Assembly: GCA_964372145.1 (NCBI GenBank)
Contig: CAYJPM010000002.1
Location: forward strand, 364-64,363
Direction: 5' to 3'
From: an uncultured Muribaculaceae bacterium
GTDB lineage: Bacteria > Bacillota_I > Bacilli_A > RF39 > UBA660
DNA: 64,000 nucleotides
Shown: piece after piece, positions 23,683 to 29,271 of the stretch
Position numbering within the stretch: the first letter of the stretch is position 1
Layout of the letters: every line of letters begins with the position of its first letter
The notes under the pieces: generated by a model
Told to the model about the DNA's origin: nothing
Database searches by the model: none
Seen by the model: only the letters and a program-made list of their open reading frames with translations
Program-made: the position numbers and the translations under genes

Positions 23683-24825
23683 TTACAAGTATTCTTGTAC
23701 CCTTTCTAAATATTCATCCATTGCACTTTTAAATTTCTTTTTAATATCAGTATTTGCAATAGCATTTCTGTCGCCAGAATCACCTTTATTATTCCCTAAA
23801 TGTTCACTAATAAGTTTTAATATTTCATCATCTGTAATTTTAAAACCACATTTTCTTAGTAAATCTATTAATCTGCCTATCTCTTCGTTTATTAATGAAA
23901 AAGCAAATTCGTTTAATTTTTCTTTTTGTTCTTTTTTTGTTTTACTAACTGACTCTAGTACATAATAATTCACTAAAAATGAATGATCAAGTAATCCGTT
24001 TAGTAAATCGTTACCATCAGTATCTAATCCATTATTTTTATTATTAGCGTTTTCATCATAATTGTATAAAAAATTCCATAAATTTACCGCTACTTGAAAG
24101 TTAGGATTTTTAAGTATTATATTTGTTTTTTTAATCGGCGGATTAATCAGTTTAACATGAGCTTTTTCGAGTTCTTTAATTAACTGACTTCTATTCCAAG
24201 ATGACATATAATCTTTAACTCTTTTAATTCTTTCTCTTACTCTTTTTATTTCTTCTTGTAACTTTTTATCTATTCCGGAATTTGAAACATCTGTAGCTTT
24301 AATAATAAGTTCTACATTTATGTCTTCTGATCCTATTCTAGTATCAGCGGCATATTCCATTTTCCTTGATCTATCTATTAAAAGTTCATCTAACTCTTTT
24401 TCTTTTTTTAAGACAAATCTTGTTAAGAAAAACAATAGTGTATAAAGAAACCTATTTTCATATATGTTATAGGTTTCTTCACTTTTTACATTAAGAATTT
24501 TATTAACTCTTATATCAGTTGTTTTATTATTATAATCATCTATATAAAATGTATGTCTAGCTAAGTCTTGAACACTTTCAGATGTTATTTTTTTAGCTTT
24601 TTCAATTATTTCAACTTCTGGATCATTAATCAATATAAGTTTTGGATTTCTAACAACGTTATCTATGTATGGACAAGCATCTTCGACTATATCTAACCAA
24701 TCAAAAGTTATTGAATCTCCATTTATCTTTGCTTTATAATGCATTTTTGATGATAATTTATTAAAAAATTCTTTATTATTTTTTTTAATTTCATCACTAG
24801 CTTCCTTGTTAATAAGATCAGCCAT
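23683..24825 (-). CDS. hypothetical protein (380 aa), operon partner of the McrB-like AAA+ protein
   Basis: AAGGGTG RBS; overlaps the sipW start by 8 nt; no TM segment; no recognisable nuclease motif. Confidence 0.45.
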   Translation of the reverse strand: MADLINKEASDEIKKNNKEFFNKLSSKMHYKAKINGDSITFDWLDIVEDACPYIDNVVRNPKLILINDPEVEIIEKAKKITSESVQDLARHTFYIDDYNNKTTDIRVNKILNVKSEETYNIYENRFLYTLLFFLTRFVLKKEKELDELLIDRSRKMEYAADTRIGSEDINVELIIKATDVSNSGIDKKLQEEIKRVRERIKRVKDYMSSWNRSQLIKELEKAHVKLINPPIKKTNIILKNPNFQVAVNLWNFLYNYDENANNKNNGLDTDGNDLLNGLLDHSFLVNYYVLESVSKTKKEQKEKLNEFAFSLINEEIGRLIDLLRKCGFKITDDEILKLISEHLGNNKGDSGDRNAIANTDIKKKFKSAMDEYLERVQEYL

Positions 24826-24842
24826 ATATAATCACACCCTTC

Positions 24843-26360
24843 TTATATTGATTTTTTGATATATTCTACAAATTCAATACATTCTTTCATAACACCTTTA
24901 CCACATTCTTTATTTAAGAATGATATGAAAGGATCTAATTCATCACGTATAAACGCAATATTTAATTGTTCAAATTTTCTTAATATTTTTCTAGCAATAA
25001 AGTAATCTATTGCTTCCATTTCGTCCCCACCACATGCTACATACACAGGTGTAAATGTTTTTAATTGTTTCATAATACGGTTACCAAACGCTATTCTGAA
25101 ATGATTTATAACATATTCATCTATATGAGCAAGCTTAGTCAACGCATCTTCACTAACAACAACATTTTTTAAAGCTTCTTCAAATAGTTGTTCTAAATAT
25201 GATGAGTTCATTTTAACTGCTTCTTGATGACGACATTCAAATGGTTCAATCTTTTTATTAATATCAATAGGTATTGCTCTATCATAAACTTTATCTGTTA
25301 CCATATATGTTGAATCATCGTTGTTTATTGTTCCTATGTACCAAAGGTTACCTGGTAATTGAATTTTTCCATTAACTATACGTTTAGGATCTTGAGGCCA
25401 ACCACTAGTAACTAGTTCCACTATCCATTCATCTCTAACTGGAATTTCTAGTATTGATAACATTTCTGCAAAATAATACTCTACTCTGGCAATATTCATT
25501 TCATCTAAGATGATTGTATGAACATTATCATCATATCCAGCTGCATAAATTTCACCTAAAGCATCTGTTTCAGTAAATTTCTTTGTAAATTCGTTGAAAT
25601 ATCCAAAAAATTCTGTTTTATCTTTCCATGATGGTTGTACTGATGATACTACTGAATCATTAGCAACAAATTTACCCCAAGCATAAGCAAGTGATGTTTT
25701 ACCTGTTCCTGAAATACCTTGTAGTATTATTAATCTAGAACTTGCAAGACCTGCTATAAATACTCTTAATAATGATGGTTCATAATATAGTTTTAATTCA
25801 CTTGCAGCAAAGCATCTTAAATTATCTATTAATTCTTCTAATGTAAAATTATTATTATAATTTTCTACTGTGTAATCAGCAAAATTTTCATCAATTAATT
25901 CTAGTTTAGGGAATCTATGAGCATTTTCTTTTGTTTCTTCATCAACTTCTTCATCTGGATTTGCATCTGGATCATTTTCATCTTCTGGGTTAAGTCCTAA
26001 TTGTGAAACTTTCATTGCCATTAATTCTGCATTTTCTTTCATTAATTTTCTAACTTGATTATTTAATTTATCTATTTCTTCAAGCATTGATTCATTACTA
26101 ACTTTATGTGTCTTATTTCTAATAAATCTTTTAACATATATAAATATGATAAAACCTATTAGACCTAAGAATAATACTACGATAGCAATTGCGAAAGCTA
26201 CAAACAGCCACTCAGGGCCATCAAAGTTTTCGCTATAATTGTCTACTATATTTACATATTCTGCTACGTTAAACAGTTGAAAAAAACCATCCCAAATTGA
26301 TTTTAATCCTTCCATAAAAACATCAATAAACTCGAAAAAAAATCTTATAAATGTATTCAT
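24843..26360 (-). CDS. membrane-anchored McrB-like AAA+ (AAA_5) NTPase
   Basis: TM at about residues 50-75 and a coiled coil, followed by LQGISGTGKTSLA (Walker A), IILDEMNIARVEYYFAEMLSILE (matches the McrB DEINRANLSKVFGEL pattern) and NLWYIGTIN. Confidence 0.6.
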   Translation of the reverse strand: MNTFIRFFFEFIDVFMEGLKSIWDGFFQLFNVAEYVNIVDNYSENFDGPEWLFVAFAIAIVVLFLGLIGFIIFIYVKRFIRNKTHKVSNESMLEEIDKLNNQVRKLMKENAELMAMKVSQLGLNPEDENDPDANPDEEVDEETKENAHRFPKLELIDENFADYTVENYNNNFTLEELIDNLRCFAASELKLYYEPSLLRVFIAGLASSRLIILQGISGTGKTSLAYAWGKFVANDSVVSSVQPSWKDKTEFFGYFNEFTKKFTETDALGEIYAAGYDDNVHTIILDEMNIARVEYYFAEMLSILEIPVRDEWIVELVTSGWPQDPKRIVNGKIQLPGNLWYIGTINNDDSTYMVTDKVYDRAIPIDINKKIEPFECRHQEAVKMNSSYLEQLFEEALKNVVVSEDALTKLAHIDEYVINHFRIAFGNRIMKQLKTFTPVYVACGGDEMEAIDYFIARKILRKFEQLNIAFIRDELDPFISFLNKECGKGVMKECIEFVEYIKKSI

Positions 26361-28715: not shown

Positions 28716-28748
28716 AATTTTTTTCGATAAAAAAAATAGAATAAAATT
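28716..28748 (-). terminator. rho-independent terminator
   Basis: aatagaat-aaaatt-attctatt hairpin followed on the minus strand by T8. Confidence 0.5.
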
Positions 28749-28755
28749 ATTCTAT

Positions 28756-29271
28756 TTAATCTTCGTCTCCATATTTAATTTCTACTATTAAAGCATAAAT
28801 TTGATATATAAATAATAAGAAACAAGGAACTACTATTATAAAGAAGAATACCCATGTTGATTGAAGTATATTTAAATATGTTCCTAACCCTGATAAAACT
28901 TCAGTTCCTTCACCTACGATGAATTTTTCTGTGTAGTTTACACCACTTTCAATAGCAATTGCTCCGTCAGATTCATAAACACTTCCAACATTGGCTATAT
29001 CGATATCAACATCACCTTCTGTATCAACTGTATATACAAATACTTCATCACCAACACTTATATCTTTAACTCTTTTTTTCTCTACAAGAACTAAGTCACC
29101 TTTTTCATATTTTTCATTATTTACTTCATCTTTAACTATTATTAAAGACACATCTTCAAATTCCGTAACACCATAGTCATTTTTATTTAAAAGTAATATT
29201 GACATCCCTATTGCAAAAGCAAAGAATACAATAATTAATAACCATACAAATATTTTTTTTATTACCTTCAT
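28756..29271 (-). CDS. SipW-like pseudo-peptidase (catalytic Ser/His absent)
   Basis: Same N-TM/beta-core/C-TM topology as SipW. YEKGDLVLVEK...ISVGDEVFVY aligns with the SipW segment YEIGNILISKE...IEIGDSISY, but the SGSME motif is replaced by VKDEVNNE. Confidence 0.45.
   Translation of the reverse strand: MKVIKKIFVWLLIIVFFAFAIGMSILLLNKNDYGVTEFEDVSLIIVKDEVNNEKYEKGDLVLVEKKRVKDISVGDEVFVYTVDTEGDVDIDIANVGSVYESDGAIAIESGVNYTEKFIVGEGTEVLSGLGTYLNILQSTWVFFFIIVVPCFLLFIYQIYALIVEIKYGDED

Follow-up and report, generated by a model that had tools for sequence, protein, structure and literature searches.

What does a GTPase of the McrB type do in a gene cluster made up mostly of genes for signal peptidases and secreted proteins? 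The question is raised by contig CAYJPM010000002.1 (GenBank assembly GCA_964372145.1) of an uncultured bacterium of the RF39 lineage, of which a stretch of 64,000 nucleotides (nt), called the window below, was analyzed; all coordinates refer to it unless stated otherwise. An initial annotation, made from the letters alone, had noted here a run of genes for a signal peptidase fusion, an AAA+ protein, a partner protein, SipW, and a SipW paralogue, and had proposed that they form a machine serving TasA-like fibres. The five genes were found where that annotation had placed them, all of them on the minus strand. Our analysis gives good support to the view that the locus is a CoCoPALM system, that is, a McrBC-derived GTPase pair without nuclease that sits in a conserved signal-peptidase cluster. 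The genes are lettered E, A, B, C, D (sipW), F, G, H, I, J, K, and L, and Ac denotes the module formed by residues 345-756 of A.

The GTPase and its partner

The profile built from homologues of B had significant matches in the Protein Data Bank (PDB) only to chains of Escherichia coli McrB (E values of 5e-5 to 1.4e-4 over residues 198-405), the next match lying at E 0.9. B has an intact NTPase site, with the Walker A motif GISGTGKT and the Walker B motif ILDEMN; its homologues share both motifs (Walker B as LDEMN) and the sensor Asn without exception. These data indicated that, at the sequence level, B belongs to the McrB family and to nothing else, as the initial annotation had supposed. Its motif N346-N-D348-D349 is ambiguous when taken alone, and HMMER aligns it ungapped to the NTAD of McrB. 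A whole-library HMMER search with the GTPase domain of B gave 8746 representative clusters, and in the 150 best representatives the motif reads GTAN-x-D-[D/E]-ST (NRDES, NQDES, NHDES, NKDES, NNDDS, or NKDDS). Because the relatives align as N-x-D-[D/E], we assigned B the NxD signature, with the Asp at N+2.

A single strong transmembrane segment (TM) at residues 56-74 of B is followed by five Lys or Arg residues, so the AAA+ domain is predicted to be cytoplasmic, which agrees with the earlier expectation of a membrane-anchored protein. Next in order are a leucine zipper of three to four heptads (residues 92-113; M92, I96, L99, V103, L106, N110, and L113), an acidic linker, and the AAA+ domain at about residues 190-505. 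No DNA-binding family was detected by Pfam or NCBIfam in the N-terminal 190 amino acids (aa), which consist of a conserved hydrophobic segment, the TM, the zipper, and the acidic linker. Residues 1-55, preceding the TM, are highly conserved and amphipathic, with M1, F4, R6, F7, E10, F11, G25, Y35, and Y42 invariant, and they score as a second TM in some homologues; this segment would be extracellular or would form a membrane hairpin that folds back.

The partner C matches Pfam DUF2357 (McrC N-terminal) with 26.5 bits against a gathering score of 23.3, and its best 120 listed homologues all carry PF09823 at a length of ~375-393 aa. The initial annotation had seen no PD-(D/E)xK motif in C, and we found no such nuclease either: Pfam gives DUF2357 alone, the AlphaFold2 (AF2) model lacks an alpha-beta-beta-beta-alpha-beta core, and a family of this length leaves no room for the domain. 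In the AF2 model, which is of low confidence, helices 121-150 and 187-211 flank a beta-hairpin (154-177), and the C-terminal half is all-helical. A PDB profile search with the C family yielded no match even at E ≤ 10. C is a McrC-type (DUF2357) partner without nuclease.

Relation to CoCoPALM, McrBC, and CoCoNuT

The arrangement had been thought undescribed, which proved incorrect. Bell, Koonin, and colleagues (eLife 2024, PMC11090510) named a large clade in the NxD branch of McrB GTPases CoCoPALM, in which the GTPase is fused to an FtsB-like domain of TM plus coiled coil (section 7), coiled coils occur on both the McrB and the McrC homologues, and an association with genes of the signal-peptidase family is conserved; a role in pilus assembly was predicted. 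That treatment takes up one paragraph and defers to a forthcoming paper (PMC11090510). No later CoCoPALM paper was found in our literature searches; no CoCoPALM detail was found in the eLife supplements, and the preprint has the same paragraph only. The searches likewise returned no literature on PDC-M26 or on RF39 in connection with pili and signal peptidase, and publications joining McrB and SipW were strain-genotype coincidences only.

Several features of this class recur in the window, namely a McrB-like GTPase, the NxD signature, an adjacent DUF2357 partner, and the association with signal peptidases. We assigned the locus to CoCoPALM because of the McrB homology of B, its NxD-[DE] motif, its TM plus zipper, its DUF2357 partner, and the signal peptidases. 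Not found in the published text and supplements are an EAL-like third component, a SipW fusion, a pseudo-peptidase, and the extreme conservation of the GTPase, all of which are treated below.

With canonical McrBC of E. coli K-12 (PDB 6hz4 and 6ut6), the locus shares the AAA+ GTPase core, Walker A and B, an Asn/Asp signature, a DUF2357 ring-activating partner, and adjacent, translationally coupled genes. It differs in carrying a TM and zipper instead of the DNA-binding N-terminal domain, NxD and not NxxD, no PD-(D/E)xK nuclease, an extra obligatory EAL-like protein, and a conservation like that of housekeeping genes. The CoCoNuT systems (CnuB/CnuC) are alike in the NxD GTPase branch, in coiled-coil fusions, and in McrC homologues that often have no active nuclease. 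In contrast to them, the locus has no HEPN or other nuclease, no CnuA, CnuE, or CnuH, and no RNA-binding domains, and it is membrane-anchored and lies inside a secretion cluster.

Two sister architectures were also seen. In one (560-680 aa; representatives P0361-P0449), four TM segments are predicted ahead of the NxD GTPase domain, and this type is distinct from the CoCoPALM type with one or two TMs and from a soluble type of 700-870 aa. The latter, with long soluble N-termini, is the second and likely represents the CoCoNuT/PDC-M26A type. B itself matches the PADLOC model PDC-M26A at 4.5e-36, a match that is domain-level homology only, since the soluble sister architecture shares the GTPase domain. 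No PADLOC model matched C or Ac.

Signal peptidases and a pseudo-peptidase

Residues 19-160 of A match TIGR02228 (archaeal-type signal peptidase I) at 2.1e-20 with 73 bits, and D matches it at 6.8e-21, the two scoring 73-75 bits against a cutoff of 51.9; A also matches Pfam Peptidase_S24 at 9e-7. The A family profile aligns with human SEC11A/C (8e-5) with the Ser of GSM, the His of HR, and GDxN..D in register, and all 75 members of the D family keep the Ser and His. Judged by their intact catalytic pairs, A and D are both predicted to be active signal peptidases, and the complete SipW-type peptidase with two TMs that the initial annotation had recognized at the N terminus of A is borne out. 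Their scores against the equivalog model specific for Bacillus subtilis SipW (61-63 bits) are below its cutoff of 190, so they are SipW-type peptidases and not SipW orthologues. By hydropathy and the positive-inside rule, A has two TM segments, its catalytic domain outside, and its last ~590 aa, after about residue 165, in the cytoplasm. The linker that follows (residues 166-344) is indeed acidic, as had been remarked, with 32% Asp plus Glu; its length varies among fused homologues, and it is absent where SipW and Ac are separate genes.

E is homologous to the SipW family (hhalign probability 99.1%, E 1.4e-18) and has TMs at 9-27 and 145-163. In E, the catalytic Ser column holds Val and the His column Ala, and none of the 64 members of its family has Ser at the former or His at the latter. 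Like the annotation before us, we read E as a putative pseudo-peptidase, and a conserved one. The peptidases can be more numerous than here: the related locus L057 ('Clostridium sp. CAG:567') holds two further SipW paralogues (its positions 3519-4659) upstream in the cluster, so that the peptidase paralogues number 3 to 5 per locus. Upstream in L057 there is also a gene for a 1008-aa Gly/Asn-rich repeat surface protein (266-3292).

Two known systems offer parallels. In tapA-sipW-tasA of B. subtilis, as here, a dedicated peptidase of the endoplasmic reticulum (ER)/archaeal type with a Ser-His pair stands beside substrates with a '[GS]TxA-xF'-type signal, and in the eukaryotic signal peptidase complex (SEC11), a catalytic subunit is joined by a non-catalytic membrane partner, the place that E would take here. 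The cluster differs from them in its several SipW paralogues, including a true pseudo-enzyme, in substrates that are not detectably TasA homologues, and in a cytoplasmic GTPase module found in neither known system.

The EAL-like module of A

The AF2 model of Ac (residues 345-756, built on an alignment of 46 homologues) reached a pLDDT of 78 and a pTM of 0.78. Its helical domain (helices 18-214 in fragment numbering) has pLDDT values mostly of 80-94, and no specific structural match was found for it. When the model was searched with Foldseek, EAL domains ranked first (probability ~1.0), and the structural neighbours included the degenerate receptor or adaptor EALs LapD, FimX, YdiV, and STM1697. 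With two methods supporting an EAL-like fold, Ac contains, as modelled and at the level of the fold, an EAL (beta/alpha) barrel, and the weakly held EAL/TIM-barrel guess of the initial annotation is borne out to that extent. Pfam EAL gave no match in Ac at E ≤ 0.1. In a register inferred from the predicted strands and secondary structure, the position of the EAL Glu is taken by an invariant H-N and that of the Asn by Y, I, or P, ExxE is mostly Lys, and DD is not conserved; part of the invariant block HNISFSxVYSDxxxDxTYxEGIVAEDK falls in a loop modelled with low confidence. Going by these residues, Ac is almost certainly not a phosphodiesterase.

The relation of Ac to its neighbours was read from 84 fetched related loci, which form the synteny sample used throughout. 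Ac has 81 homologues, mostly of 620-720 aa, and for many of them an S24 peptidase domain is precomputed. In the 33 loci of the subclade whose B is ≥59% identical, SipW and Ac share a single open reading frame (ORF) of 633-798 aa, so that the fusion is real. In the subclade with B identity of 55-58%, Ac is a stand-alone protein of ~315-335 aa whose gene ends ~10 nt before B; SipW is encoded separately 1.5-3 kb upstream, and genes for secreted proteins intervene. With a hidden Markov model of the module, an Ac gene was recognized immediately before B in 73 of the 76 loci with enough sequence, and the remaining three have a ~350-aa ORF at the same place. Because Ac always abuts B, fused or stand-alone, the Ac-B-C trio is the invariant core. 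The SipW fusion is a lineage-specific Rosetta-stone event that ties this cytoplasmic trio to a signal peptidase. The initial annotation had made the signal peptidase fused and coupled to an AAA+ motor the central feature; the fusion stands as conserved in one subclade, but with Ac standing alone in the distant one it is not part of the core.

Analogous systems bear on what such a module might do. In LapD-LapG and FimX-PilZ-PilB, too, a degenerate cytoplasmic domain of EAL fold is coupled to another enzyme, which for LapD/LapG is a protease outside the cytoplasm and for FimX a hexameric pilus NTPase, and their output is a surface adhesin or fibre. They differ in that Ac lacks known c-di-GMP (cyclic di-GMP)-binding residues, no GGDEF or HAMP domain is present here, the protease, a signal peptidase, is joined to it in cis, and the NTPase is McrB-like and not PilB-like. 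By analogy with LapD, FimX, and YdiV, a module of EAL-like fold may respond to a ligand or serve as an adaptor.

Carried further, the analogy would make Ac a receptor for a second messenger, c-di-GMP or a related nucleotide, which gates SipW in the manner of LapD/LapG, with B and C as an accessory chaperone or assembly factor. Such a role would suit the fold, the presence of LapD and FimX among its neighbours, and the covalent fusion of Ac to an extracytoplasmic protease in the window genome. In the related locus L062, moreover, a GGDEF diguanylate cyclase gene (Pfam 3e-29; 6574-7434, minus strand) lies divergently beside the pseudo-SipW end of the cluster. It is the only GGDEF gene in ~1.5 Mb of related loci, which contain no canonical EAL, and we regard it as thin evidence for a ligand role. 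The EAL Glu, Asn, ExxE, and DD are not conserved, however, the residues that are invariant in Ac (HN...AED) are unlike those of known c-di-GMP-binding EALs, and the window contains neither a GGDEF or EAL gene nor a c-di-GMP riboswitch. Ac is also unfused in most lineages yet always abuts B, which points to B-C as its main partner, and no other component comes close to B in constraint. We consider a second-messenger receptor of this kind unlikely.

Conservation and spread of the cluster

Every one of the 84 related loci shows the same order of genes, which settles the question of neighbourhood conservation that the initial annotation had raised. C is present in, and adjoins B in, 84 of 84; D is present in 81, in each of which it follows C; and F, G, and E were found in 77, 68, and 65, respectively, most of the misses being due to contig ends. 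Further SipW or pseudo-SipW genes lie upstream, and H, I/J/K, and L recur as well. E-A-B-C-D-F, followed by G on the opposite strand, form a constant block, and the H-I-J-K-L group stands either upstream or downstream of it; the gene order of the cluster thus occurs in two circular permutations. From these recurring neighbours we delimited the cluster to 14544-29271 (L to E), ~12 genes. That a degraded McrBC came to lie beside a sipW operon by chance was considered and is ruled out by the synteny (84/84) and the gene fusion.

For B, >8000 clusters at 90% identity were found under the E-value limit, the best 120 listed being 62-83% identical over the full length. At ≥55% identity, relatives of B (55-83% identical) occur in at least 575 GTDB species representatives, whose titles read uncultured Bacilli, Tenericutes, Mollicutes, Erysipelotrichaceae, and 'Clostridium sp. 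CAG:567' and which we take to be an RF39-like assemblage. The median identity to the window is 58% for B (minimum 55%) versus 25-45% for the other cluster proteins, and in the closest genome B is 78% identical versus 58% for argS and 65% for dacA.

These figures bear on whether the locus could serve in defence against phages or plasmids, as a membrane-bound McrBC or CoCoNuT derivative that detects an infection at the cell envelope and responds by means of an effector other than a nuclease (a peptidase-triggered envelope change, abortive infection). B does have a GTPase domain homologous to McrB and a match to the candidate-defence model PDC-M26A; its nearest non-TM relatives are long coiled-coil proteins of the CoCoNuT type, and domain-level relatives occur on plasmids and a few phage contigs. 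Defence genes are typically patchy and fast-evolving, whereas B exceeds argS in conservation in the closest genome, its synteny is fixed, and it spans those 575 or more species. A full-length B-type protein was found in none of 72,556 plasmids and 50,697 phages, nor in IMG/VR; the cluster holds no nuclease or recognizable toxic effector, C and Ac match no PADLOC model, and most of the genes encode secreted proteins and signal peptidases. With no nuclease, high conservation of B, and no full-length B on plasmids or phages, the locus is not defence-like, and we judge a defence function improbable.

The conservation of B at the level of housekeeping genes would also suit an envelope or division machine, in which the GTPase, with its FtsB-like TM and coiled coil, takes part in septation or remodels the wall, and the secretion genes are conserved neighbours and no more. 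Bell et al. report FtsB-like N-terminal homology for the class (PMC11090510), and in the window genome the cluster lies between dacA/argS on one side and a LytR-CpsA-Psr gene on the other. The TM plus zipper architecture is indeed present in B, but no FtsB or DivIC family of Pfam or NCBIfam matched its N terminus at E ≤ 0.1. The argS/dacA flank, moreover, is common only to the window and its closest relative, whereas SipW and secreted-protein genes are always present, and the SipW-Ac fusion ties the module directly to a signal peptidase. A septation or wall-remodelling machine therefore seems to us scarcely probable.

Secreted proteins and protein L

F, G, I, J, and K all have N-terminal hydrophobic cores, which in F, I, J, and K end in [ST][TY][YF]A-WF. 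F, with its signal or TM at 10-28, occurs in forms of ~200 aa or ~409 aa across loci and is related to G (hhalign probability 95.9%), which has its signal at 10-28 and in most loci follows F on the opposite strand. I, J, and K are paralogues (I-K hhalign probability 100%). H is related to them (H-K hhalign probability 99.3%) and has a TM at 28-46 preceded by seven Lys or Arg residues and no cleavage motif, which makes it a candidate anchor subunit. The G+C content is 0.35 over 18000-20000 (genes I and J) against ~0.24 elsewhere in the window; this probably reflects their Thr/Ala/Gly-rich composition, recent acquisition being the other option.

The initial annotation had called these genes a TasA array, a label that the sequence searches did not bear out. 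Profile searches with the I/J/K and G families against PDB, Pfam, and NCBIfam found no TasA or pilin homology, and per-member Pfam scans of both families gave no match to Peptidase_M73 at E ≤ 1. What was found is the signal model TIGR04088 (cognate_SipW), which matches 11 of 33 members of the I/J/K family (best E 5e-5); the G family has no Pfam, PDB, or NCBIfam match, and TIGR04088 was not detected in it. The label that fits the data on the secreted proteins is that of predicted SipW-type substrates.

Protein L has no TM and no Pfam or PDB match. Tblastn matches to it were obtained in 33 of the 84 loci, always beside K or E, and it is probably a fourth cytoplasmic component.

A proposed function

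We take the locus to be one functional unit because of the fixed synteny, the position of Ac upstream of B, the tight gene junctions, and the SipW-Ac fusion in 33 loci. The predicted topology puts the AAA+ domain, C, Ac, and L in the cytoplasm and the peptidase domains and the substrates outside. The reading that we favour, and which we place just on the probable side, is that this CoCoPALM locus acts as a GTP-driven, non-defence, inside-out regulator or assembly motor for surface proteins processed by SipW-type peptidases.

According to Niu et al. (2020), as cited in PMC11090510, McrB-type proteins are hexameric rings, into which a McrC stalk enters to stimulate GTP hydrolysis. By homology, B would form a hexameric GTPase ring, held just under the membrane by six TM helices and their leucine zippers, and C, by its homology to the McrC N terminus, would insert its stalk and hairpin into the ring and stimulate GTP hydrolysis, its helical C-terminal half serving in place of the nuclease as an output or docking domain. 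Ac would dock to B-C as a third obligatory cytoplasmic component, and in the window genome its long acidic linker would tie it to an active SipW at that domain's cytoplasmic end. The GTPase cycle, which a ligand or partner on the EAL-like domain might gate, would be relayed across the membrane to a signal-peptidase complex of the active A and D with the non-catalytic E. From F, G, I, J, and K this complex would cut the '[ST]xA-WF' signal peptides and so set the time and place of subunit release and of assembly into a surface fibre or pilus, for which H might be the base.

A motor of the type IV pilus kind was also considered. Since SipW cleaves after the hydrophobic helix and leaves the mature subunits soluble, a gating or ordering role is favoured over such a motor, and the model of an extrusion ATPase acting on membrane-embedded subunits was down-weighted. 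A dedicated processing or export machine had already been suggested by the initial annotation, and the conserved link to SipW substrates fits that suggestion; the processing or export role itself is one that we infer.

Several observations weigh against a GTP-driven regulator of surface proteins. SipW substrates are exported by Sec, and fibres of the TasA type polymerize without cytoplasmic energy, which leaves the requirement for a GTPase unexplained. The secreted proteins have no detectable homology to TasA or pilins, as described above. In Ac, the canonical residues for metal binding and c-di-GMP catalysis are gone, neither a c-di-GMP riboswitch nor another cis-acting RNA was found in the cluster, and a GGDEF neighbour occurs in just 1 of the 84 loci. 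A terminator-like hairpin sits between E and A, and the contacts among Ac, B, C, and SipW are deduced from gene order and one fusion.

In a bolder form of the proposal, the locus would be an exapted McrBC motor, an envelope machine, near-essential and found throughout the lineage, in which a membrane-tethered GTPase ring, a McrC-type activator, and a degenerate EAL-fold receptor control, by mechanical or allosteric means and from inside the cell, an extracellular signal-peptidase complex of two active members and one pseudo-member and time the release and polymerization of new fibre subunits. McrBC would thereby have its first function outside defence, and the complex would be the first signal peptidase gated by an NTPase. 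We hold this to be doubtful, if conceivable.

Gene layout and surroundings

Coordinates are given in Table 1; four of these protein sequences are called genes in a public NCBI record. The junctions were read directly. A and B overlap by 1 nt at 26360 (TAATG), as first reported, and the 17-nt gap between B and C contains the Shine-Dalgarno ribosome-binding site GAAGGG. The 8-nt overlap claimed for C and sipW at 23674-23683 is actually an 8-nt spacer at 23675-23682 (TAA-TACATAAA-ATG).

Table 1. Genes, protein domains, and an RNA element of the cluster, with window coordinates
Feature	Positions	Strand	Description
E	28756-29271	-	171 aa; predicted pseudo-SipW
A/U-rich hairpin + U-run	28729-28757	-	directly 3' of E
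A	26360-28630	-	756 aa; signal peptidase + linker + Ac
A residues 1-165	28136-28630	-	predicted active ER/archaeal-type (SipW-like) signal peptidase domain, two TMs
A residues 166-344	27599-28135	-	acidic low-complexity linker, predicted cytoplasmic
A residues 345-558	26957-27598	-	helical domain of Ac (AF2 model)
A residues 559-756	26363-26956	-	predicted degenerate EAL-like alpha/beta barrel of Ac
B	24843-26360	-	505 aa; predicted membrane-anchored McrB-like GTPase, NxD clade
C	23683-24825	-	380 aa; McrC-like DUF2357 partner
D / sipW	23120-23674	-	184 aa; second predicted active SipW-type signal peptidase
F	21873-23093	-	secreted protein, 'SFTYA-WF' signal; paralogue of G
G	21193-21828	+	small secreted protein, divergent orientation
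H	20238-20942	-	N-in membrane-anchored short paralogue of I/J/K family
I, J, K	16351-20223	-	three paralogous secreted proteins, SipW-type signal peptides
L	14544-16211	-	555 aa, conserved, no TM, no known family

The gap between E and A (125 nt) starts with a 10-bp A/U hairpin followed by U8, with a folding free energy of -6.9 kcal/mol and a z score of -4.0, none of 200 shuffled sequences being equally stable. A consensus terminator scan requires at least three G-C pairs, and the hairpin falls below its criteria; it may weakly terminate or attenuate transcription before the A-B-C-D unit, and E may therefore be its own transcription unit or be attenuated. Another terminator-like hairpin, of 11 bp with four G-C pairs, lies between J and K (17465-17490, minus strand) and suggests that the I-J transcript ends there.

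Directly downstream of L, at 12012-14488 on the minus strand, are the LytR-CpsA-Psr family gene (6e-36) and a gene for a 214-aa sigma-70-family factor, neither of which had a tblastn match in the related loci. On the other side, just outside the cluster, a T-box leader (31063-31256, minus strand; Rfam 99.8 bits) lies upstream of argS. The window also contains an RNase P RNA of class B, which together with the T-box and a G+C content of ~24% fits a low-GC genome of the Bacillota.

Implications

To the published class the cluster adds an EAL-like third subunit, a SipW fusion, a pseudo-peptidase, the membrane-anchored paralogue H, the 555-aa protein L, the full extent of the cluster, and the degree of GTPase conservation. 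Annotation of this GTPase clade as defence, of the PADLOC type (PDC-M26A), is probably misleading. If the favoured reading is true, CoCoPALM would give the McrBC-type GTPases their first function outside defence, in the cell envelope, and would be a case of a signal peptidase under cytoplasmic control. The conservation of B, above that of argS in the closest genome and across at least 575 species of RF39-like gut Bacilli, indicates that the system is probably important for how these bacteria, which are common but uncultivated and have reduced genomes, build their surface or attach.

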